Below are positions 1,619 to 19,754 of a DNA stretch of 52,243 bases, one piece after another. Numbering within the stretch: position 1 is the first letter of the stretch; every line of letters starts with the position of its first letter. Made by a program: the position numbers and the translations under genes. The stretch comes from Candidatus Sulfobium sp. (GTDB lineage: Bacteria > Nitrospirota > Thermodesulfovibrionia > Thermodesulfovibrionales > UBA6898). The notes below the pieces were generated by a model. It was given only the letters and a program-made list of their open reading frames with translations, ran no database searches and had not been told where the DNA came from. The stretch is taken from positions 1-52,243 of the forward strand of contig JARRRI010000004.1 in the NCBI GenBank assembly GCA_037380845.1. Direction: 5' to 3'.

Positions 1619-1622
1619 AAGT

Positions 1623-2701: not shown

Positions 2702-2711
2702 CTCCTTAATT

Positions 2712-2960: not shown

Positions 2961-2990
2961 CCTTTTCCCCGCCGGGCATCGTCTTCTTTG

Positions 2991-3772: not shown

Positions 3773-3863
3773 GAGAGTAACGGAGAGGGCCGGGAAAACC
3801 CGGCGGAAGCCCGGACCGGCCGCGTACGTCTCAGGACTTCCGCCTTTATCATTTCCTTCTACC

Positions 3864-6320
3864 TTATCCCTGTACCGCTTCAATCTTTACCGCGGTCGTA
3901 ACGGGGGTTCCGTTTTCCGAAGGGAAAGTGAGAGCGTTGACCCTGCCGTGCGGGAAGTGAGACGACGTGAATACGGTTCCGGACGGAATCTCATCCGATA
4001 CCTTCGCCTTGAGGTATACCGTTCCGCGCTTTGAAGTGACCTTGACATGGCTGCTGTCGGATATACCGAACTTCTTTGCGTCGTCTTCGCCCACCTCCAG
4101 GAATGCTTCCGAAACGACAAGGTCGAGGGCCTTTGACCTCGTCGACATGGTCCCCGAGTGCTGAAGCACGTCTCTCGTTACCAGTGAGAGCGGATATTCA
4201 GCATCGGGTTCTTCGCCTTCGGAATGCGCCACCGGCTGGAAGGCCCTTTTCCCCTCCGGCTGCCCTTCCGCCTTTACCATAGCCGCTATCTCTTCAGATA
4301 CGTCGCCGATGTTCCTGATCGAAATATCGGAGCCCATCACGAGCGAGAGGTTCCTTATTATCTGCCAGTCCGGCATCGACTGCCCCGTGGTCTCGACCAC
4401 CTTGTTCAGCTTCTGGGCGACGCCCTCGGCGTTTACGAAAGTCCCGTCCTTCTCAGCCCAGCTCGATGCAGGGAGCAGGACGTGGGCGTACTTGGCGGTC
4501 TCGGTCATCGCGATATCCTGGACTATCAGCAGTTCCAGTGCCTTAAGCGTGTGTATGATCTTTGAATTATAGGGGAATGCGGAGACGGGGTCTTCGCCCA
4601 TGATATAAAGAGCATGAAGCGAGCCCGGCTGGTAGAGCATGTCAAAGAGGTCTTTGCCTCCCTCCGGCCTGATACCCATCTCATAGGCACCGAAGGTATT
4701 TGCGTAGTCGGCCGGTATCTGCAGCGCCTCCGCCTCTTCCCCCAGCAGGATGACGAGGTTCGCCGCCGCCAGCACGGTGTCGGAACCCTTGGTGTTCTCG
4801 GTATGGTTGACCGTGAGGGATATCATGCGGCTCTTTGCCTTTGCCAGTGCCTCGGCCGCCGCGACGATTTCGTCGCCGGGAATCCCGGTGATTTCCGAGA
4901 CTTTCTCCGGGGTGTAATCCGCGACCGTCTTTTCGAATTCAGCAAAGCCTTCCACCCCGGATATCGTCTCTCTGTCGTAAAGGCCCTTGTCCATAATGGC
5001 CTTCATTAGACCATTCAGGAAGGCCACCGAGGTGCCCCTTTTCATTTTGAGGTAAGCGGTGCTGTGCCTGGTGAGCTTCGTCTCTTTCGAGTCCGCAACG
5101 ATAAGTCGGGAGCCTTCCCTCTTTGCCTGCAGTATATTGAGGCCGAAGACGGGATGGGTTACGCTTATGTCGGACTCGACGACCAGGATCGCCTCCTTTC
5201 CCAGAGGGGCCTTCAAGTCTATGGGATGAGTCTCTAGTCCGAAAGCCTTCCCGAGTGCGCTCTGCACCTTCGTGTATCCGAAGGCCGCAGCGGAATCGAG
5301 GTTGCCGGAGCCCACGACGCCGGCCATGAATTTCTTCAGCATGTAGTTGTCTTCGTTTGTGCACCTGTGGGAGCCGATGGCGCCGACGGACGAGCTGCCA
5401 TAGGAATTCGTTATGAACTTCAGCCTGTCGCTGATATAGGACAGTGCTTCGTCCCATGAGGCCGGTACAAGAACGCCTTCCTTCCTGATCATCGGCGTCT
5501 TCAGCCTGTTTTCGCTGTAGATGTAGTCGAAGCCGAACCGGCCCCTTCCGCAGAGGTTTCCCTCCGACCGGCCATTGTCCTCTTTCCCCCGGGAGCGGAG
5601 TATCTTGCCCTCCCTGAGGCCCAGGGTAAGCGTGCACCCGCAGCCGCAGAAAGAACAGACCGTTTCCTTCTCCTCAAGGAACCATGCACGGGCCTGGAAC
5701 TTGAAGGGCTTGCTGAGGAGAGCCCCGGTGGGGCAGATGTCTATGCACTGTCCGCAGTAATCACACTCCAGGATCTCGCCGAAGGCCGGCTGCACCACCG
5801 TCGGGAAGCCTCTCCCTATGAAACCCAGCGCCCCCCTGCTCTGGTGCTCTGCACAGATGCGGACGCACTTTCCGCAGAGGATGCATCTGTTAGCCGTCAG
5901 CTCGACAAGAGGCCCCCTCACGTCCGGCGGTGCGGCCTTCCTGTGCCTTACAAAGCGCCCCTCCGGTTTACCGTATTCATATGCAATGTCCTGGAGGTCG
6001 CATTCGCCTGCCTTGTCGCAGATCGGGCAGTCCAGAGGATGATGTATCAGGAGGAGTTCAAGGACCGTTTGGCGTGCCTTCCGGAGCTTCGGTGTTTCCG
6101 TCTTGACGACCATGCCGGGCGCCACGGGGGTGGAACAGGAGGCGAAAAGCCTCGGCTGCTTTTCCACTTCCACGACACAGAGCCTGCAGCCGCCGTAAGG
6201 TCTCAGCCTTTTGTCATAGCACATGTTCGGTATATGGATCCCGTTTTGCTGGGCGGCCTTGAGTATTGTAGTGCCCTCTTCGACGGATATGGCCTTGTCG
6301 TTGATCGTAAGTTCAACCAT
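3864..6320 (-). CDS. NuoG/FdhA/SfrA-like Fe-S subunit (molybdopterin-oxidoreductase fold; no H-cluster, no Mo-ligating Cys/Sec)
   Basis: 2Fe-2S (GGCRLCVVE), HPLDCPICDKAGECDLQ, 2x4Fe-4S (CILCGKC, CDYCGQCIDICP) and CSFCGCGC; GNLDSAAAFGY where FdhA has its catalytic Cys/Sec. Confidence 0.85.
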   Translation of the reverse strand: MVELTINDKAISVEEGTTILKAAQQNGIHIPNMCYDKRLRPYGGCRLCVVEVEKQPRLFASCSTPVAPGMVVKTETPKLRKARQTVLELLLIHHPLDCPICDKAGECDLQDIAYEYGKPEGRFVRHRKAAPPDVRGPLVELTANRCILCGKCVRICAEHQSRGALGFIGRGFPTVVQPAFGEILECDYCGQCIDICPTGALLSKPFKFQARAWFLEEKETVCSFCGCGCTLTLGLREGKILRSRGKEDNGRSEGNLCGRGRFGFDYIYSENRLKTPMIRKEGVLVPASWDEALSYISDRLKFITNSYGSSSVGAIGSHRCTNEDNYMLKKFMAGVVGSGNLDSAAAFGYTKVQSALGKAFGLETHPIDLKAPLGKEAILVVESDISVTHPVFGLNILQAKREGSRLIVADSKETKLTRHSTAYLKMKRGTSVAFLNGLMKAIMDKGLYDRETISGVEGFAEFEKTVADYTPEKVSEITGIPGDEIVAAAEALAKAKSRMISLTVNHTENTKGSDTVLAAANLVILLGEEAEALQIPADYANTFGAYEMGIRPEGGKDLFDMLYQPGSLHALYIMGEDPVSAFPYNSKIIHTLKALELLIVQDIAMTETAKYAHVLLPASSWAEKDGTFVNAEGVAQKLNKVVETTGQSMPDWQIIRNLSLVMGSDISIRNIGDVSEEIAAMVKAEGQPEGKRAFQPVAHSEGEEPDAEYPLSLVTRDVLQHSGTMSTRSKALDLVVSEAFLEVGEDDAKKFGISDSSHVKVTSKRGTVYLKAKVSDEIPSGTVFTSSHFPHGRVNALTFPSENGTPVTTAVKIEAVQG

Positions 6321-8200
6321 TATGCTTCCCCCTTTGCCGTCCCGCCTTCCGGCGCCCCGGTCTTGACCTCTTCGGCCTTTTCGGGCGATCCCGCGTCATA
6401 GCCGGCGGGCATGATCTTTATCGATTTGAATTTGCATGCCTCATAGCATGTCCTGCAGTGTACGCATACCTCCTGGATGATCTTGTGGGGCTGCTTCTTC
6501 TCTCCTATTATCGCTTTTGAGGGGCATGCCCTCAGACAGGCGCCGCATCCCTTGCAGAGTTCCTCGTCTATCACGAACGTCGTAAGGTTTCTGCAGACGC
6601 CGGCCTTGCACCATTTGTCGTGGATATGCGACTCGTATTCGTCCCTGAAGTATTTTATCGTTGTCAGCACCGGGTTCGGAGCGGTCTGACCGAGGCCGCA
6701 GAGCGAGGTGGTGAGGATGTCCTTTGCGAGGTCCTGAAGGGTCTCGATGTCGCCTTCCTTGCCGTTCCCCTCGGTGATATCGGTAAGCATGTCCAGCAGG
6801 ATCTTCGTGCCTACCCTGCAGGGCGTACATTTGCCGCAGGATTCATCGGCCGTGAATTCGAGAAAAAATCTGGCGGTGCCGACCATGCAGGTATTGTCGT
6901 CCATCACGACCATTCCGCCGGAACCCACGATGGCTCCGGTGGCCACAATGTCCTCGTAGGTAACCGGCGTATCCAGGAGGTGTTCCGGGATGCAGCCGCC
7001 GGAAGGCCCCCCGAGCTGTACGGCCTTGAAAGTCCGGCCCTTTCTGATGCCGCCGCCGATGTCGTAGATGATCCTTCTGAGGGGAATGCCCATCGGCACT
7101 TCGACCAGGCCCACGTTGTTTACCGCACCCGTCAGGGCGAACACCTTGGTGCCCGCGCTCTTTTCCGTCCCCAGGCTCCTGTACCAGTCCGATCCGTTCA
7201 GGATGATCGGTGCTATCTGGGCGAGTGTCTCGACGTTGTTCAGCACCGATGGCTTGTCCCACAATCCCTTTACGGCAGGGAAGGGAGGCCTGGGCCTGGG
7301 CATTCCCCGTTTGCCCTCTATGGAGCGCATAAGCGCAGTCTCTTCGCCGCACACGAATGCGCCGGCGCCAAGGTAGATGCCGAGTTCAAAGTCGAACCCG
7401 GTATCGAGGATGTTCTTTCCGAGGAGTCCCATCTCGGTCGCCTGGTCTATTGCCATCTGCAGACGTTTCACGGCAAGGGGATATTCGGCCCTCACATAAA
7501 TGTAGCCGTTGTGGGCGCCTATCGCCTTTGCGCCGATGATCATTCCCTCTATCACGGAATGGGGGTCCGCTTCCATAACCGACCTGTCCATAAACGCGCC
7601 GGGGTCCCCCTCGTCGCCGTTGCAGAGCATGTATTTAACATCGGATTTCACCTTGGAGGCGAATTCCCATTTCAAGCCGGTGGGGAATCCGGCGCCGCCC
7701 CTGCCGCGCACTCCGGAGTCCTTCACGGTCTTTATGATCTCTTCCGGTGTCATTGCCGTAAGCGCCCGGGCCGCAGCCTGGTAGCCGTCCCTGGAGATAT
7801 ATTCCTCGATCTTTTCCGGATCGATCAGCCCCTTGTTCCTCAGCACCCTCAGCACCTGATGCTTGAAGAAGGGAATTTCCTTCATCAGAGGTATGGCGGT
7901 CTTCTTCTCCGGCTCCCTGAACATGAGTTTCTCGTAGGGCCTTCCTTTAAGGAAATGCTCCTCTACGAGCTTCGGTATCTCCTCGACCGTCAGCTTCTGA
8001 TAGAAGACCTCGTCGGGGTATACGGACATGACGGGGCCTTCGGCGCAGTAGCCGTTGCAGCCCGTCAGGACGATCTTGATCTCATCGGCGAGGCCTTTCT
8101 TTTTCAGCTCTTCCTGGAGGGCGTCTTTTACCTTCATCGTCCCGCTTGCCACGCAGCCCGTCCCCGCGCATAACATCAGATTTGCACGAAACTTTTCCAT
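6320..8200 (-). CDS. HydB/HndC-like NAD(P)H/FMN subunit (NuoF family with extra ferredoxin domains)
   Basis: N-terminal 2Fe-2S (CAGTGC, GCNGYC), GRGGAGFPTG, GDEGDPGAFMDR, GGPSGG, CGKCTPCR and C-terminal 2x4Fe-4S. Confidence 0.92.
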   Translation of the reverse strand: MEKFRANLMLCAGTGCVASGTMKVKDALQEELKKKGLADEIKIVLTGCNGYCAEGPVMSVYPDEVFYQKLTVEEIPKLVEEHFLKGRPYEKLMFREPEKKTAIPLMKEIPFFKHQVLRVLRNKGLIDPEKIEEYISRDGYQAAARALTAMTPEEIIKTVKDSGVRGRGGAGFPTGLKWEFASKVKSDVKYMLCNGDEGDPGAFMDRSVMEADPHSVIEGMIIGAKAIGAHNGYIYVRAEYPLAVKRLQMAIDQATEMGLLGKNILDTGFDFELGIYLGAGAFVCGEETALMRSIEGKRGMPRPRPPFPAVKGLWDKPSVLNNVETLAQIAPIILNGSDWYRSLGTEKSAGTKVFALTGAVNNVGLVEVPMGIPLRRIIYDIGGGIRKGRTFKAVQLGGPSGGCIPEHLLDTPVTYEDIVATGAIVGSGGMVVMDDNTCMVGTARFFLEFTADESCGKCTPCRVGTKILLDMLTDITEGNGKEGDIETLQDLAKDILTTSLCGLGQTAPNPVLTTIKYFRDEYESHIHDKWCKAGVCRNLTTFVIDEELCKGCGACLRACPSKAIIGEKKQPHKIIQEVCVHCRTCYEACKFKSIKIMPAGYDAGSPEKAEEVKTGAPEGGTAKGEA

Positions 8201-8229
8201 CTATTTCCTCCTCACACTTTTTTTCACTT

Positions 8230-8613
8230 TCAGTATGTCGTCTCGCTGCCGACAACCAGGGCGTATTTCTCGACGGGGGCGCCCCCCAGCACGTGTTCCC
8301 TGAATATCTCCCTCATCTTTTCTTCGTTCAGGTCGCAGTACCTGACGGGGGGCTGGTTCATCAGCTCCACCGTAGCCAGAGGCTCTTTTGCGCAGAGGCC
8401 CGCGCAGCCTGACGTGGTGACGATGATGTCAGTGGATTTTGCCTTCGCCATCTCGTCCATAAGCGCCGTCATGACCGCCCTGGCACCGGCCGCTATGCCG
8501 CAGGTGCCCATGTGTACGGTAACCTTCGCCCTGTATCCGCCTTCCCTCAGTGTGAACTCGGCTCTGTGCTGTTCCTTGATCTTCTGAAGATCCTCTATCT
8601 TTAATCTTGGCAT
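8230..8613 (-). CDS. HndB/HydD-like thioredoxin-fold 2Fe-2S ferredoxin subunit
   Basis: VHMGTCGIAAGAR, TSGCAGLCAKEP. Confidence 0.9.
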   Translation of the reverse strand: MPRLKIEDLQKIKEQHRAEFTLREGGYRAKVTVHMGTCGIAAGARAVMTALMDEMAKAKSTDIIVTTSGCAGLCAKEPLATVELMNQPPVRYCDLNEEKMREIFREHVLGGAPVEKYALVVGSETTY

Positions 8614-8614
8614 A

Positions 8615-9550
8615 CTAAACCTCCTTCTCGGCCATCTCTTCCGTTTCTTCCGGAGCCGCGGCCTGGATGACTGACGGCTCGTACTGACTGATGATTTCGA
8701 GTGCCTTCTTCGGCGTCATAGCCCCGTGCGTGTCCTGATCGATCACCATCACAGGGGCAAGGCCGCAGGCCCCGAGGCACCTGACGCCCTCAAGGGAGAA
8801 TTTCCTGTCGTCGGTGGTGTCTCCTATGTGGATCTTGAGTGCGTCGCTGATCTTGCCCAGCACACCTTCGATCCCTTTAACATAGCACGCCGTGCCGAGG
8901 CAGACCCTGATATTGTGGTCACCCCTGGGCTTCATCGTGAAGAAGGAGTAAAACGATACAACGCTGTGCACCTCCGCCGGAGGAAGGTTGAGCCCCCTGG
9001 CTATCTTCTTCTGTACGACCGGCGGGAGATATCCTACGATTTCCTGCGCCCTCTGAAGAACGGGGATCAGGGACCCCGGCCTCTCTCTGAACGCTTCTAT
9101 CACCCTCTGGAGTTCAGCCTCCATCGCGGGAGGAAGTTCCTCGGCGGTTTTTTCCGCACCTTCCTCTTTCTGCCTGCCCTTCGTCCATTCCACGGCCCGC
9201 TGGGTCACGTCGAGAAGGACCGCAGGGGTGAAGGGCTTCGGCACATAATCTATGATGCCGAGCTCAAGGGCTTCCTTTATCGTTTCCTGGGAGGGGTAGC
9301 CGGTAATGATTACTATGCCCGCCGCAGGCTTCGTCTTCTTTATCCATTTGATCAGGGTGATACCGTCTACCTCGGGCATCTTCAGGTCGGTGAAGACGAG
9401 GTCGTAATCCCCCTGCCCCATCTTCATGATCGCCTCCCTGCCGCCCTGGGCGCCTTCCACTGCATACCCTTCGCCCTTCAGGACCCTCTCCGCGCTCCGG
9501 ATGACGATGAGTTCGTCATCGACAATCAGTATTTTCGGGTCTCCCGCCAT
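8615..9550 (-). CDS. Receiver domain fused to a NuoE/HydC (HndA) 2Fe-2S subunit
   Basis: N-terminal ILIVDDE, TDLKMP, ITGY, PKPF; C-terminal VCLGTACYVKG and VRCLGACGLAP. Confidence 0.92.
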   Translation of the reverse strand: MAGDPKILIVDDELIVIRSAERVLKGEGYAVEGAQGGREAIMKMGQGDYDLVFTDLKMPEVDGITLIKWIKKTKPAAGIVIITGYPSQETIKEALELGIIDYVPKPFTPAVLLDVTQRAVEWTKGRQKEEGAEKTAEELPPAMEAELQRVIEAFRERPGSLIPVLQRAQEIVGYLPPVVQKKIARGLNLPPAEVHSVVSFYSFFTMKPRGDHNIRVCLGTACYVKGIEGVLGKISDALKIHIGDTTDDRKFSLEGVRCLGACGLAPVMVIDQDTHGAMTPKKALEIISQYEPSVIQAAAPEETEEMAEKEV

Positions 9551-9565
9551 AATTTCCTCCTGGAG

Positions 9566-10339
9566 TTATTGATTGGTTGTTAACGGTTTTATGCGTGCCA
9601 GCCAAAGCAGCCAGCCTTCGCTCAGATTGTCGCGTACCAGGGCGCTCATCGCGTCATTTGCCTGATGGTTCAGCTGGGTCACCACGCCCGACATGGGCGA
9701 GATGAGGTCGTCGGTCTGTCCGCCCCCCGAAAGGACTTTCGCAAAACATTCGCCGGCGGCGACCGCCTTTATGTCCGCGGGGAGGTCTATGTACATGAGC
9801 TGGCCGCTCAACAACCAGTAACGTATGTCGCAGCCTATTTCCCATAATCCGTCTTTCACCGGCCGTGCCCAAGTCCCCTCCTTATAAAAGATGACGGGGT
9901 TTGCCGTATCCCTCAGAGAAACGATCTCGTTCCTGAATTCGTCGATAAATGCCTTCCTGAGTATCCATCCCCTGTTGTCGAAGACCTTCGTGGCCACATT
10001 CAACATGAAATCGGGTGTGAAGGGCTTTTCGATGAATTCGAACGCCCCGAGCCTGACGGACTCTTTGGCGTCTTCCAGCGTGGGATAGCCCGTTATGATT
10101 ACTACGTCCAGACCGGGCTGGATGACCTTCGATTCCCTGAGGACGGTGATCCCGTTGACGTCGGGCAGCCTGACGTCCGTAATAAGAAGATCAAACTCTT
10201 CATTGGAGATCTTCTTTATCGCGTCCTCGCCCTTGTCCGCGGTCAATATGTTGAATCCTTCCGCTCCGAGGATTCTTTTGCAACTGAGCGTTACAACCGG
10301 GTCGTCGTCAAGGACCAGTATTTTTCCCTTGTTTTCCAT
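9566..10339 (-). CDS. Receiver domain fused to a GcvH-like (glycine cleavage H) domain
   Basis: Receiver motifs LDDD, TDVRLP, EKPF; C-terminal TWAR...IG...YIDLP...GE.F...LISPMSGVVTQLN...EGWL. Start at 10339 has AGGAGG upstream. Confidence 0.8.
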   Translation of the reverse strand: MENKGKILVLDDDPVVTLSCKRILGAEGFNILTADKGEDAIKKISNEEFDLLITDVRLPDVNGITVLRESKVIQPGLDVVIITGYPTLEDAKESVRLGAFEFIEKPFTPDFMLNVATKVFDNRGWILRKAFIDEFRNEIVSLRDTANPVIFYKEGTWARPVKDGLWEIGCDIRYWLLSGQLMYIDLPADIKAVAAGECFAKVLSGGGQTDDLISPMSGVVTQLNHQANDAMSALVRDNLSEGWLLWLARIKPLTTNQ

Positions 10340-10388
10340 AGTCGCCTCCTCCTGTTCAGTTCTTGAAGCCTTGAACGTCATCAATCAA

Positions 10389-10405
10389 AGCAAATGAGAT
10401 GCCAA
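10389..10405 (-). promoter_or_regulatory. sigma54 (-24/-12) promoter
   Basis: Minus strand reads TTGGCATCTCATTTGCT (GG-N10-GC), about 50 bp upstream of the first gene of the operon. Confidence 0.8.
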
Positions 10406-10654
10406 AATGAAAAAACCTTCGAAAACAGACAGTTATCGGTAAAAGATTGGGCGAAAGGCCGGAACAGAAGCTTGCGAAGTATAAGAAAATAATACAGGGG
10501 AGGGTGCATCGACCTCAAATCGCCGTCGGAAGCCGGTAAAGAGAAGGATTTGAAGTATGTATTTTCTTTTTATACACGTATATATGGCAACTGAAAATAC
10601 CGAAGGCAAGCGGCAATAGGCCAGAGGCAACAGGTTGGGGGGAACTCCGCCTGA

Positions 10655-10728
10655 TCATTCCCGGGGTAGTAGCCGGGAATCCCTGTCTCTAAGCAGATGT
10701 GCCCGGATTTCCGCCTTGCGAAAATGAC
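10655..10728. repeat. REP-like palindrome doublet
   Basis: TCATTCCCGGGGTAGTAGCCGGGAATCC...GGATTTCCGCCTTGCGAAAATGAC; related copies at 20781, 34511 and 37748. Confidence 0.75.
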
Positions 10729-10774
10729 GACGTGCAACCCTGAACATAAGAGAAGAAGCTTTGGATGTATTGCA

Positions 10775-11245
10775 CTAGAAACGCAGGGTGGCCTTCATCC
10801 TCTTCGGATTCAGAAGCAGGTCCAGCGCATCGACAGCGGAACGTACCAGGATGGCTGCGGAAGTGGCGGCATCCATCGCGCACCCCTCCTCGAGCAAGAC
10901 GGCGATGCCGACCCTTGCGGCCTTCAGCATCCTTCTGTCGTTGTTGCCGTTGCCCAGCGCAACTACACCCTCCGGCCCCAGGCTGTCGACGTACGATTCC
11001 TTCTGGATGTCGTGGCCTTTACCGCGGAGGATATGCAACGTGCATTGCACACCTTCAAGTTCCTTCCTTGCCATGCCGAACGTGTCGGCTGTCAGAACGT
11101 GTATCGTGAGGAACTCACCTGCTTTGTTGAGGCGTTCCTTAACCCCGGGCAGGAGTTTTCCGTCGACCGACAACGTTCCGGTAAAATCGGATACAAGGTG
11201 TTCCAGTCTTACGGACCCGAAACCGGGTATTTCTATCTCGTGCAT
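10775..11245 (-). CDS. HAD-family hydrolase (soluble P-type ATPase-like)
   Basis: DFTGTL, LTADTFG, GNGNND. Confidence 0.85.
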   Translation of the reverse strand: MHEIEIPGFGSVRLEHLVSDFTGTLSVDGKLLPGVKERLNKAGEFLTIHVLTADTFGMARKELEGVQCTLHILRGKGHDIQKESYVDSLGPEGVVALGNGNNDRRMLKAARVGIAVLLEEGCAMDAATSAAILVRSAVDALDLLLNPKRMKATLRF

Positions 11246-11479
11246 TGTTGCCTCCAGGCAGGCAGCCCGGGATTATTATCCTTACGGCTGCAAAAAGAAT
11301 CCTCACGAAGCACGAAGGGCGCGGTGAAGAATGCCGTGCAGCGACACCCTACGGCCCTGTACAGGGGTCCGCCATCTTTTCCCCGAAGTCACAAGCCGTC
11401 AGGTCTGTATTTATATGTGAGACGGGTGAAATAATGTTGCGATTGCAAGGCCTTTTCCGTGCTGCCGGTAACACAAGGG

Positions 11480-12187
11480 TTATTCTCCCGCGTCCCTGTG
11501 GGTATACTTGATAATGTCCACGTCGGAAAGGGCGACGATACCCTCCGTCACCATTTCGTCCAGGATGGGCATCACCTTCCTGACGTTTTCTTCGACGTCC
11601 ATCACCGTGATCAGTATGGGCATTTCCCCCGTTGACGTCAGAGTCTTCTTCTTGTGGTAGCGGCGGTGAGGGCCGTATCCCGCGATTGCCTTATATACGG
11701 TCGCTCCGGCGATGTCGGTCATGATGAGCCTCTTTACGATCGCCTCGTACAGTGGCTCCCCCTCCCACTTGTCATCTTCGCTTATCATGATGCGAAGCAT
11801 TTTTGCCTTGCCCTGCAGTTTCATGGTTTCTTCCTTTTGCTCCTCGGTCTTGGCGCTCTTGCAGCACTTAACAACATTAGTGTCAGACACCTCCACGAGG
11901 CCCTTTTCAACGACGTGATAAACGTCCGGAAGGACCTTGTCGATCATTTCCGCTGAATCAACTACCTCTATCTTGACCGGCAGGCTTGTAGAGAGTTCGA
12001 GCATCTTCGCTGTATGAACAACACCGTCGCTTCCGTACCCTGCTATGCCCCTGAATACGCTCACCCCGATGATCTTGTTTTTGAAAAAGATATCGAGCAG
12101 AACCTCATATACGGGCTTGCCGTGGAACTTTTCCGTCTCGTCGACGTATACGACAAGCTTCTTTGCCGGTCCCTTGGTTACCATCAA
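11480..12187 (-). CDS. Tandem DUF190 (PII-like) protein
   Basis: Two repeats of (YVDE/MISE)...PxYE...G(V/A)(S/T)V..(G/A)IAGYG...P(V/I); directly downstream of crcB. Confidence 0.85.
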   Translation of the reverse strand: MMVTKGPAKKLVVYVDETEKFHGKPVYEVLLDIFFKNKIIGVSVFRGIAGYGSDGVVHTAKMLELSTSLPVKIEVVDSAEMIDKVLPDVYHVVEKGLVEVSDTNVVKCCKSAKTEEQKEETMKLQGKAKMLRIMISEDDKWEGEPLYEAIVKRLIMTDIAGATVYKAIAGYGPHRRYHKKKTLTSTGEMPILITVMDVEENVRKVMPILDEMVTEGIVALSDVDIIKYTHRDAGE

Positions 12188-12192
12188 GCCTC

Positions 12193-12570
12193 CTATAGTA
12201 TCTTGGCGAGTACCTCGCCTGTCTTAAGTGCGACAAACCCCAGAAACACGCTCAAAACAATATTGAGGCCCGCCAGCAGAAGCTCGCTGTCTTTCAGCAG
12301 CTTGCCGGTCTCATATTCGAAGGTCGAGAAAGTCGTATAGGCCCCCAAAAACCCGACGAAAAGAAAAAGCCTTATCTGCGGGCTGACCACAAATTTCTCG
12401 GTAAGCAGTGTCATCAATAACCCGATAAAAAAACAGCCGCTTACATTGGCGGCGAACGTACCGGCGGGGAAGCTCCTGCCCCACTTCATCCCGACCCAGG
12501 TCGCGATCACGTATCTGGCGATTGCCCCTATGAAGCCGCCTGCCCCTATTACCAGATAATTTATCATCAA
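12193..12570 (-). CDS. crcB: Fluoride efflux channel CrcB/Fluc
   Basis: GGFIGAIARY, FPAGTFAANVSG, GFLGAYTTFSTF. Confidence 0.96.
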   Translation of the reverse strand: MMINYLVIGAGGFIGAIARYVIATWVGMKWGRSFPAGTFAANVSGCFFIGLLMTLLTEKFVVSPQIRLFLFVGFLGAYTTFSTFEYETGKLLKDSELLLAGLNIVLSVFLGFVALKTGEVLAKIL

Positions 12571-12599
12571 TGACCCAGTTTCTCAAACCTTAACGGCAC

Positions 12600-12632
12600 A
12601 AAAAACTCCTGCCCTCGAAAAAGAGCAGGAGT
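12600..12632 (-). terminator. Intrinsic terminator of the riboswitch expression platform
   Basis: Minus strand ACTCCTGCTC-TTTTTC-GAGGGCAGGAGT followed by a T-run; overlaps the aptamer 3' end. Confidence 0.8.
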
Positions 12633-12675
12633 CATCAGCCGGAATCGGCGCTTAAAGGCGAACTCCATCGCCTCT
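12624..12675 (-). ncRNA. Fluoride riboswitch (crcB motif)
   Basis: Minus strand GGCGATGGAGTTCGCC...GCTGATGACTCCTGC, directly upstream of crcB. Confidence 0.93.
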
Positions 12676-12678
12676 GGT

Positions 12679-12708
12679 AACATATCAATAAAGATCCTGA
12701 TATGTCAA
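12679..12708 (-). promoter_or_regulatory. sigma70-type promoter for the riboswitch-crcB unit
   Basis: TTGACA-N18-TATGTT ending a few bases before the aptamer. Confidence 0.65.
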
Positions 12709-12986
12709 CAGCACCCCACAATTGACCGCGACTTCCCTCCGGACATGTCATTGGTCAGGTTGTCACTCAAAACGGAAGAAGTACTTCGGTCGCGAACTTC
12801 GGCAAGGTATCCGAACATGAATGGCATGTTTTCTCAAACTGATAGGACAGGAACATCTTGGTCCGGAGTCGATAGACCCTATTGGACTGTCGGATATTCA
12901 GCCCAAGAGCTGCGGATCAGAATTTCCGGCTTTTACTCTCTAATGCTTACGGCTTCCTGCCTGAAATTCCCAATAAAGGCACCGCA

Positions 12987-13157
12987 TTATTGGAATCCCA
13001 GATAGACTTCACCAACAGTAGCGCCTATGTCGCCCTCCGTTGTTGAGGACTGGGTACTTTTCAGGGCATGCCTGATTACTTCCTCTTTTTCTTTATCCGT
13101 GAGGCGTGCCCAAAGATTGGATTCGTTCAGGATCTCTATAACTTCCTTCGCAGTCAT
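12987..13157 (-). CDS. Small hypothetical protein
   Basis: MTAKEVIEILNESNLW... with AGGGGGT upstream of the ATG. Confidence 0.5.
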   Translation of the reverse strand: MTAKEVIEILNESNLWARLTDKEKEEVIRHALKSTQSSTTEGDIGATVGEVYLGFQ

Positions 13158-13190
13158 AATTGCCACCCCCCTTGACCTGGAGAAGCACAT

Positions 13191-13304
13191 TCAGTCAGTA
13201 GACCTGCGTCCCGGCTTCCCGACGAAGGTCAACCCAAATGAAGAACCGTAGTCTGCAACGAGGCCCATTGCCAAAATAAGACCAAAAATTATTGACCTTC
13301 TCAT
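13191..13304 (-). CDS. 37-aa small ORF resembling a signal peptide or single TM
   Basis: Strong RBS AAAGGAGGAGGAGA-ATG; MRRSIIFGLILAMGLVADYGSSFGLTFVGKPGRRSTD. Confidence 0.4.
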   Translation of the reverse strand: MRRSIIFGLILAMGLVADYGSSFGLTFVGKPGRRSTD

Positions 13305-13642
13305 TCTCCTCCTCCTTTCGTTTCTCGATTAGTGACCTAATTGAATCAGGGTCCTGATTCCTACTTGTAGCTTACCGGCTTTACCGCCCGATTGCTATGA
13401 TATTCACTGCCTTTGTTGCGGCAATTATTGCGGAAGAGATTGCTCTTTATTGCTGGCATTACCGAGTAAGCGCAATAAAAAGCAACATTACGGTAATTGC
13501 TGCTTATGATCACGTCTGACACAGCTGTTAATCTGTTCAAACTCACGACCTATTCTTTAATTGTATCGAAAAGGGGGCTTCGGAAAGCGGTACTACGGAT
13601 AACCTTTATCGTCCGCAGTGTTTATCTTCAAAGGTGAGCATT

Positions 13643-13963
13643 TCAAACATCTGAAATATACCGGGCTCCAGCCTCAAAATAACGAGGGCCTTTTTTCGAC
13701 CATTTGATTAAGGCCTTGCGGCCGCTAAAATCAGGCATCATGTGTTCCGTTATTGTTAAAGTCTGTCCTTCTTTAATGCCTGCCTGAGTAAGAAAACCGA
13801 AGCCGCGGGAAGAAATGTCAATTGTTATACCTTCAAAAATTTCTTCGGATATGCCATTGAAGAATCGAAAATTAGCAATAATTCCGTCGCGCGCAACAAT
13901 TCTCCTTTCTTCTTCACTTGTGGCTCTTCTTATAGCTGCCGAGGTGACTGTACCAGAAGACAT
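13643..13963 (-). CDS. PilZ-domain protein
   Basis: Degenerate R-rich motif (RRATSEEERR) and DISSRGFG; adjacent to a GGDEF-EAL gene. Confidence 0.7.
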   Translation of the reverse strand: MSSGTVTSAAIRRATSEEERRIVARDGIIANFRFFNGISEEIFEGITIDISSRGFGFLTQAGIKEGQTLTITEHMMPDFSGRKALIKWSKKGPRYFEAGARYISDV

Positions 13964-14327
13964 CAGCTTATACTTTTACGCCTATTACAATACATCATCC
14001 TTACCGTAATTCGGAGAAAACGCAACACCAGTCAATTGGTCAACTCCTCTTTGATTACAATAGACCTATTATAGCGGAGGTGTCAACTTCAAAGTTTGGT
14101 TCTCATTTTAGCTTATAGCCGGCGTTTTAGAGGCTTTGCAGGAGGGGGTATAAAAAGGGCTGCACCAAGACACATCTTGAGACTAAAGTGCGGGGTGAAC
14201 TCCTCGTGCACTGAGAAAATCCTGCTGTACTGACTTGACTTCGGGAATAAACCAGTACATATTAAAATTGCTTGTTCAAGAAAACCGTTGGGTGAAGAAG
14301 GCTTTTTTGGGGCGGGGGTGAAAAAGC

Positions 14328-16022
14328 ATGAAAAATGAGGAAGAGATTCGTGCTGTAAAAGCAGACAACTCTGCTTATAAGGTTTTATCCAGAACAGCAT
14401 TCTACATTGTGATTCTGGCGTGGATTTTACTCGCTGTCTATATTTTGCATATTGACGGAGAGTTAAGCGAAGACATCATTAGGCCCTTCCTGATAGCGGA
14501 TAGGCCGGGCTTTAGACTCCGGGCTTTCGTACTGCTTGTACCGCTTGTTTTGACCTTACTTGGATATCTCATCAATGACAGGGCAAATCTTTTCAGAAAG
14601 GCCCTGGCTGCAGAAAAGGAATCACGGCAAAGAACTGCCGAGCTCGAACAAGTCAACGAGCTTTTGACACGTGAAAATAGCGAACGGAAAAAGGCGGAAG
14701 ATCTGTTGACCCGTCAGGCTTTTTATGATTCTCTTACAAATCTGCCGAACCGGTCGCTTTTTATCGAGCGTCTGCGCGCTTCACTGCAGCGCAGGAAGCG
14801 GTATCCTGATCATTCCTTCGCCGTGCTGTTTCTTGATCTTGATCGCTTCAAGGTTATCAACGACAGCCTGGGGCATATAATCGGGGACCAATTGCTCATA
14901 ATGCTTGCTCAAAGGCTGAAAAAACACATCAGGGCTATTGACACAATTGCCCGTTTTGGGGGTGACGAGTTCGCCGTCCTCCTGGAAGAGACCAAAGAAA
15001 TATCCGCTACGAATGAGATTGCCGAGCGGTTCCATAACGAGATGAAAGAGCCTTTTACAATATTCGGTCGTCAGATATTTACGACCATGAGTATAGGCAT
15101 GGTGCTCAGCAATATGGGAGATTACACAAAACCTGAGGAGCTCCTCCGCGACGCCGACACGGCAATGTACCACGCGAAAGAGCGCGGCAAGGCCTGTCAT
15201 ATCATCTTCGACGCAACCATGCATGAGAAGGTAACCGCAGCCCTTTGGCTCGAAACAGAGCTGCGGAGTGCAGTGGAGCGTAACGACTTTATTGTCCACT
15301 ATCAGCCCGTCATTTCACTTGAAGGGAACAAAGTTTGTGGATTCGAAGCGCTCCTCCGCTGGCGGCATCCGGAACGCGGGATTATTACGCCTTCGGAGTT
15401 TATTGTGGCGGCCGAAGAGACCGGCCTCATCTTTCCCCTCGGCGAACGCGTTATTCGGGAAGCATGCCGGCAGCTCAAGGCTTGGCAGGACCAATTCCCA
15501 ACTTACCGGGGCCTGACAGTCAGCGTGAATGTATCCGCAAAGGTCTTCTCACAGCCTGACTTCTTCGCCTCCGTGAAGAGCATCCTTGAGGAAACCGGCC
15601 TTGCGGGAAGCTGTCTAAGACTCGAGATAGTGGAAAGGACCCTTATAGAAAACCCCGAGCCGGCTGCCGCAACGATAAATCGCTTCAAGGAAATGAACGT
15701 CTTGTTCGACATCGATGACTTCGGCACCGGGTACTCTGCCCTGAACTATCTTCGCTACTTCCCCATAAAAGGTTTGAAGATCGACGGCTCATTCATTAAC
15801 GCCCTTACCTCTGACAATAATAATGTGGCAATTGTCAAAACAATGATTGCTTTAGGGAAGGTCCTTGGCTTAGACGTTATTGCCGAGGGAGTGGAAACAG
15901 TCGAACAGCTTGATGTATTCAAAACGTTACAGGGCGAATATGCGCAGGGATTTTATTTATTCAGGCCCTTGGACAGTAGGACAGCAGGGGACCTTCTTTC
16001 CGGCAAAATATCGTCGCATTGA
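14328..16022 (+). CDS. Membrane-anchored diguanylate cyclase/phosphodiesterase (GGDEF-EAL)
   Basis: Two TM segments, YDSLTNLPNR, RAID..FGGDEF, EAL, DDFGTGYS. Confidence 0.95.
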   Translation: MKNEEEIRAVKADNSAYKVLSRTAFYIVILAWILLAVYILHIDGELSEDIIRPFLIADRPGFRLRAFVLLVPLVLTLLGYLINDRANLFRKALAAEKESRQRTAELEQVNELLTRENSERKKAEDLLTRQAFYDSLTNLPNRSLFIERLRASLQRRKRYPDHSFAVLFLDLDRFKVINDSLGHIIGDQLLIMLAQRLKKHIRAIDTIARFGGDEFAVLLEETKEISATNEIAERFHNEMKEPFTIFGRQIFTTMSIGMVLSNMGDYTKPEELLRDADTAMYHAKERGKACHIIFDATMHEKVTAALWLETELRSAVERNDFIVHYQPVISLEGNKVCGFEALLRWRHPERGIITPSEFIVAAEETGLIFPLGERVIREACRQLKAWQDQFPTYRGLTVSVNVSAKVFSQPDFFASVKSILEETGLAGSCLRLEIVERTLIENPEPAAATINRFKEMNVLFDIDDFGTGYSALNYLRYFPIKGLKIDGSFINALTSDNNNVAIVKTMIALGKVLGLDVIAEGVETVEQLDVFKTLQGEYAQGFYLFRPLDSRTAGDLLSGKISSH

Positions 16023-16232
16023 AATACAACCTCAAATGAGAGCGACTGGTCTCGAAGGTTTCGGTAGTTTCAGCCAGATACTCTCCACCGCGTTTCCTGT
16101 ACAGGTCGAGGCAATGTCCGAAGGGGCTTCAGGATGTCGGGCTATAGCGCTTACTAAGCACAACCTTGCTCATTTGAGGGGAAATCGGTGATTTGGACGC
16201 TTTCCGCGTCATCGCTCGCCTGGCAGCAGATT

Positions 16233-17627
16233 TCAGCGGCCGGAGGGATGCTTCTGCTTCGCCGAGATATTGTATTTCTTCATGAGAGCATGGAAATTGG
16301 GCCTCTGCATTCCCACGTCGGAAGCCGCCTTCGATATATTCCACGCGTTTCTCTTCAGGGCCTCCATTAAAAAGGATTTCTCTATGTTTTCGACGGACTT
16401 GAGCCTCAGGTCTTTCTTCTTTTCCTTCAGTTCGTCCACGGTCTTCGGCACCTCTTCCGCTACCGGTATTTCAAGGGCAGAAAAATGCTCCGGCCGGAGG
16501 GTCTTGCCCTGACACATGATTATGGCGCGCTGTATGCTGTTTTCGAGCTGCCTCGCATTGCCCGGCCAGTCGAAAAGGAAAAGCATCCTCATCGTTTCCG
16601 CGCTTATATGAGTCACGCTCTTCCCAATCTCCCGGCTGTATTTCCGGAGAAAATGGTTGGCAAGGGCGGGGATGTCCTCCCTCCTTTCCCGAAGTGGCGG
16701 GATATGGATCGGAAAGATGTTCAGTCTGTAAAAGAAATCCTCCCTGAAGGTTCCATCCCTTACCATCGTCTTCAGATCCTTGTTCGTAGCCGACACAAAC
16801 CTGACGTCGGCCTGGACGGTCTTTTTTTCGCCGACCGGCCTGAACTCCTTCTCCTGCAGTACTCTAAGCAGCTTTGCCTGTGTCGACAGGGCGAGATTGC
16901 CTATCTCGTCAAAGAAGATGGTCCCTCCGCCCGCCATTTCCAGGAGTCCTTTTTTCTTTTCGAAGGCGCCCGTGAAGGCCCCTTTGGCATGTCCGAACAA
17001 TTCCGACTCGATAAGTGTTTCGGGGATGGCATTGCAGTCTACAATTATGAAGGGCTGTTCCTTCCTCGGGCTGTTGAAATGGATGGCCTTGGCGACAAGC
17101 TCTTTTCCGGTACCGCTTTCACCGGTGATGAGCACCGTGCTTCCAGTTACCGCCACCTTCGCTATGAGCTGAAAAATCCTCTGCATGGCCTGGGACACAC
17201 CGACGATGTTCCCAAGCTCATAGTGAGAAGGTACCATCTCTCTGCCGGCCGCCGAAAGACCCTTCCTCTCCATTGCCCGCTTTACGAGTGACAGCAGGTC
17301 GCCCGGGCTGAAGGGCTTTTCTATATAATCGAAGACGCCGGCTTTCATCGCCCTCACAGCGGTCTGTACCGTCCCGTACCCTGTCATGATGATCACTTCG
17401 GTTTCTGGCCACTTTTCCTTGATCCTTACCAGGATCTCTATGCCGTCGATGTCAGGCATCTTAAGATCGGTGAGAACAAGGTCAAAGGGAGAAGAGTCGA
17501 GTGCCTGCAGTCCCTCATTGCCGGATTTAGCGGTTCTTATCCCGTAGCCTTCCGGCCTGAGTATTCGTTCACAGCTGATCCTTATGATGTCTTCGTCATC
17601 GATGATAAGGATGCTGCCCCTGTTCAT
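16233..17627 (-). CDS. sigma54-dependent response regulator (REC-AAA+-Fis HTH)
   Basis: TDLKMP, GESGTGKE, GAFTGA, WPGNARQLEN; alternative start at 17645. Confidence 0.95.
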   Translation of the reverse strand: MNRGSILIIDDEDIIRISCERILRPEGYGIRTAKSGNEGLQALDSSPFDLVLTDLKMPDIDGIEILVRIKEKWPETEVIIMTGYGTVQTAVRAMKAGVFDYIEKPFSPGDLLSLVKRAMERKGLSAAGREMVPSHYELGNIVGVSQAMQRIFQLIAKVAVTGSTVLITGESGTGKELVAKAIHFNSPRKEQPFIIVDCNAIPETLIESELFGHAKGAFTGAFEKKKGLLEMAGGGTIFFDEIGNLALSTQAKLLRVLQEKEFRPVGEKKTVQADVRFVSATNKDLKTMVRDGTFREDFFYRLNIFPIHIPPLRERREDIPALANHFLRKYSREIGKSVTHISAETMRMLFLFDWPGNARQLENSIQRAIIMCQGKTLRPEHFSALEIPVAEEVPKTVDELKEKKKDLRLKSVENIEKSFLMEALKRNAWNISKAASDVGMQRPNFHALMKKYNISAKQKHPSGR

Positions 17628-17805
17628 GACGTCGGATTCCCCCATGGGTTATTCAGGGCCTGTGCCCAAAAGGACCCCGTTATCGTGGTTTTCAGCCTGT
17701 CCGGACCCCGGCAAATCGACCTTTATTATGTCATTGTCCGGTCAAGTCGTGGAATCACAGCCGACTTAACCTTAAAGTTGCATAAATTCTCTCATTCACG
17801 CAACT

Positions 17806-18177
17806 TTAAGGTCTATTGTCCAGCGCGGCGGCAACGGCGGAGGTCAGGGCGTCCGGAGTGAAGGGCTTTTCTATGTAATCGAAGGCCCCGAGTTTGATGG
17901 ACTTCACCGCCGTGTCGACCGTCTGGTAGCCGGTAATGACGATTACCTGCGTTTGAGGCCACCTTTCCTTGATTGTTCGGAGGACCGTTATGCCGTCCAT
18001 GTCGGGCATCTTGAGATCGGTGAGTACCAGGTCGAACGGTTCCTCTTCCAGCATCCTGATACCGTCGAAGGCGTTTGCCGCCAGTCTTACCTCGTACCCC
18101 TCCGGCGAGAGGACCCTCTTACAGCTGGTCCTTACGATACTTTCGTCATCGATTACCAGAAGTTTGCCCTTGTTCAT
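17806..18177 (-). CDS. Single-domain response regulator
   Basis: VIDDE, TDLKMP, EKPF. Confidence 0.93.
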   Translation of the reverse strand: MNKGKLLVIDDESIVRTSCKRVLSPEGYEVRLAANAFDGIRMLEEEPFDLVLTDLKMPDMDGITVLRTIKERWPQTQVIVITGYQTVDTAVKSIKLGAFDYIEKPFTPDALTSAVAAALDNRP

Positions 18178-19754
18178 ATCACATCCGCATAAGCCGGCAG
18201 CCTGACAAGAAAACTGGTCCCCTCACCTGGCCAGGTCTTTACGTCAATTTTACCACCATGCTCCCTGATTATGCCGTGGCTGACGGCGAGCCCCAGGCCG
18301 GTGCCCTTGCCGACCGGTTTTGTGGTGAAGAAAGGCTCGAATATCTTCGCCAAATTCTCATCGCTGATACCCGGACCGGTGTCGTGGAACTCGATTTCAA
18401 CATAGTCCATGTCGTCTTCGTTTACGTTCCTCGTTGAAACGGTGATAGTGCCCTTGCCTTCGATCGCATCCGCTGCGTTCATTATCATGTTAAGGAAGAC
18501 CTGCTGCAACTGGGACGCATCGGCCTTCACCCTTGAGAGGGCGGGGTCGAGGTCGGTGATAAGCTTAATGTCGAAGAAGTCGGCCTTGTTCCTGACGATG
18601 TTGAGGGAATGGGAAAGGACGTCGTTAATGTTCACCGGCGCCTTCTCGGCAGCCGAAGCCCTCGCGAAGCCCAGCAGTCCCTTTATGATATTCGAGCACC
18701 GGTTCGCCTGCTCGATGATCACTTCCACATCCTCCCTCTCTTCGGTGTCCTGAGGCAGGCGCTTCAGGAGGAGATGCCCGAAGGTGACGATCCCCGTCAG
18801 CGGACTGTTTATCTCATGTGCGACGCCGGCAGCCATCCTTCCGAGAGAGGCCAGCTTCTCCGAATGGATGAGCTGGGCCTGCGCCATCCTTATAGCCTCT
18901 GTCTTTTCCTGCACTTTCTTTTCGAGGGTGTTGCCCCATTCGACCAGCTCGTTCTTTGCGGCTTTAAGGTCTGATGTCATTTCATTGAACGCCGAGGCAA
19001 GTTCGCCCATCTCGTCTTTGGTGTTGATCTCGACATGGTAATCGAGGTCTCCGTCGGCCACCTTCTGCATGCCCTGCGCAAGCATGCTCACCGGGGTAGA
19101 GACAAAATTCCACAGGATCGTGCAAAGAACGATCGAGATGATAAAAAGGAATATGAGGATATAAACGGTAATGGCGATGCCCTGCTCCTTCATGCTCTTG
19201 TCCATAAAGGCGAGGGAAAGGTTTGCCTGTACGAGCCCCAGGATCTTCTGAGATTTCCTGTGCACGTGGCACGCCGAGGTGTAACAGGCCGGCTCGTTGA
19301 AGATCGGCTGCACGATGGTCAGGACCCTGGCATTACTGTCTGTCTTGTGTATGAACCAGGTGGGTGTTGACTGCGACTGGCCAGTGGCGGAATGACAGCT
19401 GAGACAGAGGGGGGACTTCATGTCTATAACGGTACCGATCTCCTTTTTCGAAGATGCATAGGCGATCTTGCCGCCGGTGTCGAACACCCGGACGTCCATC
19501 ACTCCTTCTGCGGAACCGATCGCCTCGATTGTCTGCTGCGTAAGGAGTTTCTGGAAGGTGAGCATTCCGTAACGGGTGCTCTTTTTTACGGAATCGACGA
19601 AAGAGGAGCCGTATTTAACCGAATACTCTACCAGTTCCTGCTCCTGGTGTCTGAAGAGGAAATACCAGAATATGGAGCTGCCGACTACCATCAGGGTGCC
19701 GATGGTAAGAATGAGCTTGCCGGTCAGCGAATGGAAGGATTTCTTAACAAGCAT
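18174..19754 (-). CDS. HAMP sensor histidine kinase with haem c-type motifs in the periplasmic domain
   Basis: TM-periplasmic-TM-HAMP layout; CLSCH and CYTSACH; VAHEINSPL, N box, DTGPG, GTGLGL. Confidence 0.92.
   Translation of the reverse strand: MLVKKSFHSLTGKLILTIGTLMVVGSSIFWYFLFRHQEQELVEYSVKYGSSFVDSVKKSTRYGMLTFQKLLTQQTIEAIGSAEGVMDVRVFDTGGKIAYASSKKEIGTVIDMKSPLCLSCHSATGQSQSTPTWFIHKTDSNARVLTIVQPIFNEPACYTSACHVHRKSQKILGLVQANLSLAFMDKSMKEQGIAITVYILIFLFIISIVLCTILWNFVSTPVSMLAQGMQKVADGDLDYHVEINTKDEMGELASAFNEMTSDLKAAKNELVEWGNTLEKKVQEKTEAIRMAQAQLIHSEKLASLGRMAAGVAHEINSPLTGIVTFGHLLLKRLPQDTEEREDVEVIIEQANRCSNIIKGLLGFARASAAEKAPVNINDVLSHSLNIVRNKADFFDIKLITDLDPALSRVKADASQLQQVFLNMIMNAADAIEGKGTITVSTRNVNEDDMDYVEIEFHDTGPGISDENLAKIFEPFFTTKPVGKGTGLGLAVSHGIIREHGGKIDVKTWPGEGTSFLVRLPAYADVI

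Follow-up and report, generated by a model that had tools for sequence, protein, structure and literature searches.

Branched two-component pathways, in which one transmitter serves several receivers, are known from CheA, which addresses CheY and CheB, and from PleC/DivJ, which address DivK and PleD. A locus that resembles them lies in Candidatus Sulfobium sp. (Thermodesulfovibrionales), in positions 1 to 52,243 of contig JARRRI010000004.1 (assembly GCA_037380845.1); this whole stretch of 52,243 nucleotides is termed the window. Judged from sequence and gene neighbourhood, the locus is on balance a probable branched circuit, in which one sensor histidine kinase with two haem motifs would serve a free receiver, two enzyme-fused receivers and, in some lineages, a sigma54-dependent activator. 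As with CheA and PleC/DivJ, there is one transmitter and there are several receivers, including a single-domain and an enzyme-linked receiver. Unlike in those pathways, a NuoE-type iron-sulfur subunit and a GcvH-like protein each carry one of the receivers, and the branch is a predicted one.

NtrB/NtrC and AtoS/AtoC provide a second comparison. They likewise combine a HisKA kinase, an activator consisting of receiver (REC), AAA+ (with GAFTGA) and HTH_8 domains, and a -24/-12 promoter with two upstream palindromes. Unlike in NtrBC and AtoSC, the activator of the Sulfobium module belongs to a matched set of four receivers, most related loci lack it, and two further receivers of its clade are products of the target operon. 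The best NCBIfam matches of the kinase and the activator are AtoS and AtoC, both below their own cut-offs; with scores under every equivalog cut-off, the pair is classed by profile as no orthologue of AtoSC or NtrBC.

The enzyme encoded in the operon may be compared with HydABC/Bfu, which likewise has a NuoE-like subunit, a NuoG/HydA-like N-terminal cluster domain and a NuoF-like subunit with an extra N-terminal [2Fe-2S] and C-terminal 2x[4Fe-4S] (Schut et al., 2022, PMC9304861, in excerpt). Unlike in HydABC/Bfu, the NuoE of the module bears a receiver, and the third subunit is of the molybdopterin type without the catalytic Cys-His. The words 'receiver' and 'kinase' do not occur in that paper, in which a complex I of Nitrospirae with an input module of the Bfu type is described as well (Schut et al., 2022). 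For the sensor, the described relatives are Geobacter GSU0935/GSU0582 (3b42) and Cache_heme/Tll0287 (preprint PMC12889525, in excerpt), which likewise show a Cache/PDC-like fold and a covalent-haem motif. Unlike these, the module sensor has two motifs (CxxCH and Cx4CH) and not one. Branched pathways and sigma54 systems are thus already known, whereas NuoE- and GcvH-fused receivers that accompany a kinase throughout an order were not found in print; no description of REC-NuoE or REC-GcvH fusions was met in the main texts of the literature searched.

Window open reading frames were classed from their listing together with Pfam and NCBIfam, and the Pfam matches agree with the domain calls. Two clusters on the minus strand are concerned: the operon, which runs from REC-GcvH and REC-NuoE through a 127-amino-acid ferredoxin-like protein, a 626-amino-acid NuoF and an 818-amino-acid NuoG-like protein to an accessory block, and, about 6 kb upstream of it, the kinase, a single receiver and the sigma54 activator.

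18174-19754, minus strand: sensor histidine kinase, 526 amino acids (Pfam HAMP, HisKA, HATPase_c)
17806-18177, minus strand: single-domain receiver, 123 amino acids (Response_reg, 116 bits)
16233-17645, minus strand: sigma54-dependent activator, 470 amino acids (Pfam Response_reg, Sigma54_activat, AAA_lid_14, HTH_8)
9566-10339, minus strand: REC with GcvH-like domain, 257 amino acids from ATG 10339 (Response_reg and GCV_H above cut-off)
8615-9550, minus strand: REC with NuoE/HoxE-type [2Fe-2S] subunit, 311 amino acids (Response_reg, 2Fe-2S_thioredx)
8230-8613, minus strand: small thioredoxin-like [2Fe-2S] ferredoxin-like protein, 127 amino acids (profile matches below cut-off)
6320-8200, minus strand: HydB/BfuB-type NuoF, 626 amino acids (Complex1_51K, NADH_4Fe-4S, 2Fe-2S_thioredx, Fer4)
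3864-6320, minus strand: NuoG-like subunit with molybdopterin-type domain, 818 amino acids (NCBIfam NuoG)

The single-receiver gene overlaps the stop of the kinase gene. REC-GcvH most likely starts at ATG 10339, which is preceded by a ribosome site (GGAGGAGG), rather than at TTG 10384.

Four sister receivers and their probable kinase

Co-variation with the kinase is concentrated in receiver residues along a single face of helix alpha-1 and in the beta5-alpha5 loop, and swapping these residues rewires OmpR (Capra et al., 2010, PMC2991266, in excerpt). The sequence-only reading of the window held that four receivers have helix-1 residues in common, and that an NtrC-like protein does not. All five strings are found in the translations of the genes concerned: IVIRSAERVLKGEG in REC-NuoE (8615-9550), VVTLSCKRILGAEG in REC-GcvH (9566-10339), IVRTSCKRVLSPEG in the single receiver (17806-18177) and IIRISCERILRPEG in the sigma54 activator (16233-17645), all on the minus strand, with IIWVAKKTLEPLG in the NtrC-like protein at 37833-39221 (minus strand), whose own kinase adjoins at 39214-40257. 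The motifs TGY and KPF(T/S)P, also listed in that reading, are real in all four but do not discriminate, being present in several other NtrC- and OmpR-type receivers of the genome; they carry no weight as evidence.

A receiver profile built from the window receivers and iterated over all open reading frames of the genome (3.18 Mb, 104 contigs) gave 78 matches, 74 of them near full length. Among these genome receivers, the relaxed pattern DD[ED].[IVA][IV]..S[CAVS]...L...G[YF] matches exactly the four module open reading frames. At five helix-1 positions, [IV][IV]-S-R-[IV] (alignment columns 9, 10, 13, 16 and 17, which we take to be Spo0F 14, 15, 18, 21 and 22), the module receivers agree at 5/5, three others at 3/5 and the remaining 67 of the 74 at two or fewer. 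The consensus is identical at three of the five helix-1 positions, compared with 32 of all 114 columns, and five positions are too few to test for enrichment. The four receivers share 38-58% pairwise identity, the activator receiver being 58% identical to the single receiver. The three genome receivers nearest to REC-NuoE are the other three module receivers, and the same is found for REC-GcvH.

A maximum-likelihood tree was made of 117 receiver domains, comprising 51 module receivers (15 loci, four classes) and 66 others of this genome. The receiver phylogeny, which had been proposed as a check, places the 51 module receivers in a single clade (support 0.95) apart from the 66 others. The REC-GcvH clade (1.0) and the REC-NuoE clade (0.999) are sister groups, and activator receivers cluster with single receivers (0.80). 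Because the tree puts them in a single clade, the four receivers are, on this sequence evidence, old paralogues. The helix-1 signature is kept in all classes across about 80 species and is also present in two distant complete genomes of other families (G029 and G030).

All four receivers score 87.8 to 116.3 bits with Response_reg (PF00072; cut-off 30.2). Alignment columns 5, 6, 49, 77 and 99 are D, D, D, T and K in all classes, corresponding to the acidic pair, the phospho-acceptor Asp, the Thr and the Lys. With 14 to 80 orthologues per class, and two truncated activator rows aside, conservation of these catalytic residues is 96-100%; in the fused classes the acidic pair, the acceptor Asp and the Lys are 100% conserved and the Thr 96-100%. 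By their intact catalytic residues, all four classes are predicted to be working receivers.

The kinase consists of a membrane segment, a periplasmic Cache/PDC-like domain with CxxCH and Cx4CH, a second membrane segment, HAMP, HisKA and HATPase_c; the haem motifs, CLSCH and CYTSACH, lie between the two membrane segments. By pattern, CxxCH is present in 47/50 and Cx4CH in 49/50 kinase orthologues; by alignment, C83, C123, C128 and H129 are invariant in 50/50. A model of the sensor domain made with the 50 orthologues has a predicted local distance difference test score (pLDDT) of 85 and a predicted template-modelling score of 0.81, and its fold matches include WalK, CitA, DcuS and the haem-c sensor GSU0935 (3b42; rank 4, 19% identity). 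The periplasmic part is thus modelled confidently as a Cache/PDC-like domain, and haem attachment is predicted. No Pfam match of the sensor region exceeds its cut-off; the weak matches are all to haem-c families, with Mcp40H-20_sensor at E 0.0015 (19.2 bits, cut-off 27) and Tll0287-like at E 0.063 (14.1 bits, cut-off 24.1). The sensor domain is therefore not a demonstrated member of the Cache_heme or Mcp40H-20 family. Signalling members among the haem-bearing Cache domains are reported to bind nitric-oxide-type ligands (PMC12889525); by analogy, such binding is a lead for the signal sensed here and nothing more.

The dimerization and histidine phosphotransfer (DHp) domain of the kinase (EKLASLGRMAAGVAHE[IL]NSPLTGIVTF) is nearly invariant over the same species span as the helix-1 signature. 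None of the 36 other HisKA-type matches of the genome is a close DHp paralogue, the next best having 35/75 identical residues. The DHp is retained in G029 although the haem sensor there is replaced.

Two side observations concern the kinase. The cluster kinase of G029 (L097, G029:C1, 12310-13446, minus strand) has 379 amino acids and the same DHp, without a haem motif; here the sensor was apparently exchanged while the transmitter and the receivers stayed. A second kinase family of 602-644 amino acids, whose sensor is 37-43% identical to the present one, is found in several relatives (G002:C14, G003:C380, G014:C76, G005:C66, G006:C30, G016:C34 and G037:C136) and not in this genome.

Conservation of the module and the nature of the enzyme

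Comparisons were made over 41 related genomes, the Sulfobium genome included, and over 80 loci annotated with at most 10 kb of flank; these are kin and not independent samples. Full-length REC-NuoE is found in 34 of the 41 genomes, and it is one open reading frame in the two distant complete genomes. Atlas protein clusters that pair Response_reg with 2Fe-2S_thioredx are commonest in Nitrospirota. REC-GcvH lies directly upstream of REC-NuoE in 75/77 loci that have at least 1 kb of upstream sequence. Of the 55 loci with 9 kb or more of upstream sequence, 44 have the two-haem-motif kinase and the single receiver ahead of REC-GcvH and REC-NuoE and in the same orientation, so that the adjacency of kinase cluster and operon in relatives, another check that had been suggested, is borne out. 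In many kinase-bearing loci nothing but the single receiver comes between the kinase and REC-GcvH, the kinase end being 86-670 nt away. No other DHp-bearing kinase gene travels with the operon in the annotated related loci. The 127-amino-acid ferredoxin-like gene is also conserved in related loci.

The sigma54 activator is found in only 10 of the 44 kinase-bearing loci. In the other 34, the order is kinase, single receiver, then REC-GcvH and REC-NuoE, directly or after the accessory block. Kinase, receivers and enzyme together are a conserved signalling-plus-enzyme module of Thermodesulfovibrionales. Since so few kinase-bearing loci hold the activator, the feed-forward loop would be a lineage variant and control at the level of the enzyme the constant part.

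REC-NuoE matches 2Fe-2S_thioredx with 163.3 bits, and its C217, C222, C258 and C262, presumably the cluster ligands, are invariant in 31 orthologues. The 127-amino-acid protein gives matches to NCBIfam fdxn_Clost (E 4e-7) and Pfam 2Fe-2S_thioredx (E 0.0016), both below cut-off. In the 626-amino-acid NuoF, the Pfam domains follow the order N-terminal [2Fe-2S], flavin mononucleotide/NADH core and C-terminal 2x[4Fe-4S], with a mean column identity of 83% over 31 orthologues. By domain order it is assigned to the HydB/BfuB type.

The 818-amino-acid protein passes the NCBIfam NuoG model (TIGR01973) marginally, with 476.4 bits against a cut-off of 470.05 over the whole model (positions 1-606 of 606), whereas its Fdh-alpha score of 476 bits falls short of the cut-off of 666. 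Its best Protein Data Bank match is FdsA of R. capsulatus (6tg9), whose '...vCHsp...' aligns to 'fGYtk', with Gly-Tyr at Cys-His; the Cys-His are taken here to be the catalytic residues of FdsA. The protein is read as NuoG-like, given the missing Cys-His, the passed NuoG model and the failed Fdh-alpha model. A formate dehydrogenase alpha subunit was considered and ruled out by the missing Cys-His and the Fdh-alpha score under cut-off. Such a protein is easily misannotated as formate dehydrogenase alpha, and the present assignment corrects that likely annotation.

The C-terminal domain of REC-GcvH scores 31.9 to 34.1 bits with GCV_H (cut-off 22.2) and matches E. coli GcvH with E 4e-7. The lipoyl-Lys position of E. 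coli GcvH ('...esvKaasd...') aligns to Gly, and none of 31 REC-GcvH orthologues has a Lys in that column. Because the lipoyl lysine is missing, the domain is GcvH-like in fold only. A model of full REC-GcvH has a mean pLDDT of 67.6, with the linker below 50, too low for domain packing or a fold search.

The nuoA-N genes begin divergently at 19879, beside the kinase gene at 18174-19754, and nuoA has this position in 40/46 loci. Because of this neighbourhood, and because the NuoG model is passed without a formate dehydrogenase site, it might be proposed, quite speculatively and with little probability, that the NuoE/ferredoxin/HydB-type NuoF/NuoG-like set is an alternative, ferredoxin-capable electron-input module for the neighbouring complex I. 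The two-haem sensor would then switch post-translationally which input module serves the membrane arm, through Asp phosphorylation of the NuoE-type subunit and of the GcvH-like adaptor. If true, this would be direct two-component control of respiratory-chain composition. The neighbouring nuoA-N operon is complete, with its own canonical NuoE, NuoF and NuoG.

The operon ends in the accessory block, with these Pfam assignments:

1067-3883, minus strand: accessory block as a whole
3416-3883, minus strand: DRTGG
2991-3419, minus strand: anti-sigma-like HATPase
2354-2701, minus strand: DRTGG
1623-2363, minus strand: PHP phosphoesterase
1067-1618, minus strand: stand-alone HATPase_c

The block moves as a unit. 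It follows the NuoG-like gene here, whereas in a group of more distant loci (L063-L089) it is found after the single receiver and before REC-GcvH; it looks like a second regulatory layer of kinase/phosphatase type. Beyond it, at about 1-191 (minus strand), is a receiver-like domain cut by the contig end; it has HSNPE for the acidic pair and is a pseudo-receiver unrelated to the four.

The sigma54 arm

The activator has REC, an AAA+ domain and HTH_8; GAFTGA and GESGTGKE are read in its translation. It matches Sigma54_activat (PF00158) with 235.7 bits and HTH_8 with 31.4 bits, and rpoN is present in the genome (G000:C20:7429-7902, 208 bits). Three predicted elements lie in front of the operon.

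10389-10404, minus strand: sigma54-type -24/-12 promoter TGGCATCTCATTTGCT, TGGCAT-N5-TTGCT (consensus match, conserved in relatives)
10479-10496, minus strand: proximal putative activator site TGTATTATTTTCTTATAC, TGTAT-N8-TATAC
10558-10576, unstranded: distal putative activator site, palindrome TGTATTTTCTTTTTATACA, TGTAT-N8-TATAC (conserved column in alignment)

The sequence-only reading had placed a clean -24/-12 promoter before the redox operon, and this element holds up: it is the sole window match with at most one mismatch to TGGCAC-N5-TTGCW, lies at the right position, about 50 nt upstream of the REC-GcvH ATG at 10339, and is conserved in relatives. With at most two mismatches the window has 17 matches versus 19.7 expected, and consensus alone would not be significant. 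In relatives, 74 loci were scored for a GG-N10-GC element with at most two mismatches 35-97 nt before REC-GcvH. The element is present in 14/14 loci with the activator versus 1/36 loci with the kinase but no activator; among loci with neither in the fetched flank it is found in 8/24. The lone positive of the 36 is L055, which has a receiver fragment at the activator's place. In that locus (7651-9036) the activator looks as if it were decaying, with a sigma54-type promoter still standing before REC-GcvH. In G029 and G030 the activator is present, the promoter is found at one mismatch (2/2) and the palindromes are similar.

The two sites are some 80 bp apart, the proximal one being located roughly 90 bp upstream of the -24 element. 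The window has two copies of TGTAT-N8-TATAC (10479-10496 and 10558-10575) versus 0.01 expected, and none of 100 shuffles gives two or more. In an alignment of 24 upstream regions there are two conserved palindromes and a conserved TTGATTT stretch; the palindromes fall inside 10405-10650, the stretch that had been named for activator binding. Activator-bearing loci also hold paired TGTAT-N8-TATAC sites. Over the whole genome the motif has four copies (3.9 expected), and only the pair at the REC-GcvH promoter is clustered. No further activator target was found genome-wide, the perfect palindrome TGTAT-N8-10-ATACA occurring six times with 5.9 expected. The predicted sites suggest that the activator probably has a single target, the operon promoter.

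Promoter, paired palindromes and their co-occurrence with the activator make it highly probable that the activator acts on the operon promoter. Of the earlier proposal that the activator induces the operon, this part stands; as a general feature of the module it does not, the arm being patchy and present in only 10 of 44 kinase loci.

The two clusters of the window are separated by about 6 kb of unrelated genes, namely crcB, DUF190, a weak PilZ-like open reading frame and a GGDEF-EAL protein. Upstream of crcB and the DUF190 gene is a fluoride riboswitch (12619-12681, 60 bits), the block occupying 11480-12681 on the minus strand. In this genus, this block, the PilZ-like open reading frame and the GGDEF-EAL gene stand between the activator and the operon that it targets; the distance is about 300 nt in other genera. 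The 245-amino-acid open reading frame that separates DUF190 from the upstream sites (10697-11434, plus strand) has no family match and is unlikely to be a gene.

Phosphotransfer readings and their meaning

In the branched-circuit reading, the kinase would sense periplasmic redox state or a haem ligand, autophosphorylate and pass the phosphoryl group to four sister receivers that have the kinase-facing helix 1 in common. The free single-domain receiver would be a modulator or a phosphate sink. The activator would bind the two TGTAT-N8-TATAC sites and open the -24/-12 promoter of the operon. The third and fourth outputs would be the REC fused to the GcvH-like protein and the REC fused to the NuoE-type subunit of the NuoE/ferredoxin/HydB-type NuoF/NuoG-like flavin/iron-sulfur enzyme. 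The most plausible mechanism is that receiver phosphorylation drives dimerization and thereby alters the association of enzyme subunits. As REC-GcvH and REC-NuoE are the first two products of the activator's operon, the signal would both induce the enzyme and act on the protein; probably, then, enzyme and gene are both its targets. A link from the kinase to the single receiver and the activator, which are its neighbours, is very likely; a link to the two fused receivers is likely, if less firmly so. Shared helix 1, receiver monophyly and conserved neighbourhood together present receivers that have both their kinase-facing residues and the vicinity of the kinase in common.

Several observations weigh against this circuit. 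As the receivers descend from one ancestor, common descent suffices to predict their shared helix 1, which by itself is no proof of a common kinase. The specificity positions were mapped by hand from Spo0F numbering and not by a tool. The helix-1 positions barely vary across species; with helix 1 and DHp both nearly invariant across orthologues there is co-conservation, and no co-variation between them to use. In more distant relatives the Arg at position 21 of the NuoE receiver gives way to A, T, M, S, I or L, and the kinase DHp does not change with it. In 11 of the 55 long-flank loci no such kinase lies within the upstream flank of about 10 kb. The phyletic match is imperfect: G034 has the kinase, the single receiver and REC-GcvH but no REC-NuoE, and G026, G027, G029 and G038 have REC-NuoE but only weak sensor-domain matches. 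The correlation between promoter and activator rests on related genomes and probably reflects few independent gains or losses. Two further sets of genomes bear on the match: G010, G033 and G035 have neither sensor nor REC-NuoE, and in G024 the contig ends just past the kinase cluster.

Much of this would be accounted for if descent were the only tie. The kinase would then serve the single receiver and the activator, while the fused receivers took phosphate from another kinase or from a small donor such as acetyl phosphate, linking the enzyme to metabolic state and not to a periplasmic signal. Receiver monophyly, the near-invariant helix 1 that ties no receiver to the kinase by co-variation, the drift at position 21, the 11 kinase-free flanks and the 6 kb of unrelated genes between the clusters all accord with it. 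Such a history is nevertheless unlikely, as is its metabolic corollary. The 34 loci without an activator place kinase and single receiver before the fused receivers, the operon brings along no other kinase with a DHp, and no kinase in the genome resembles this DHp. The receiver classes, moreover, are overall only 38-46% identical, and the kinase-facing positions are nonetheless unchanged in all four across the order.

Receivers that act as phosphate sinks are known in other branched systems, and the single receiver, perhaps with the fused receivers too, could instead chiefly be a drain or a buffer for the kinase's phosphate, or the receivers could compete among themselves, and so time one true output. 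An output-less single-domain receiver does accompany the kinase in related loci, and G034 keeps kinase, single receiver and REC-GcvH without the enzyme operon. Because G034 keeps REC-GcvH in this way, REC-GcvH may also have a role independent of the enzyme. In the G034 locus (L094, G034:C11, 5419-8269), hrcA-grpE-dnaK-dnaJ follow kinase, single receiver and REC-GcvH; the genome is small, at 1.7 Mb. A sink or relay is rather doubtful as the main function: the NuoE fusion is retained in 34/41 genomes, the linker and GcvH-like domain of REC-GcvH are highly conserved, and no histidine phosphotransfer (Hpt) protein is encoded in the cluster. The conserved NuoE fusion and GcvH-like domain favour an output role for the fused domains.

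That the fused REC domains have ceased to signal and serve enzyme dimerization or assembly is very improbable: nothing specific speaks for it beyond pseudo-receivers being common in general (PMC12632262, in excerpt), the catalytic residues of the fused classes are kept, and the true pseudo-receiver of the window looks quite different.

Two-component systems are nearly always read as gene switches. In the Sulfobium module the signal appears to be wired to the receiver domains of a flavin/iron-sulfur enzyme itself, and this arrangement is shared throughout an order of anaerobic sulfate reducers, most of whose lineages lack a transcriptional arm. If the phosphotransfer is true, the module would be a clear natural case of a periplasmic haem sensor that directly controls a NuoEF-type redox enzyme by phosphorylation, and would show a transcriptional feed-forward arm gained by, or lost from, an older post-translational circuit.

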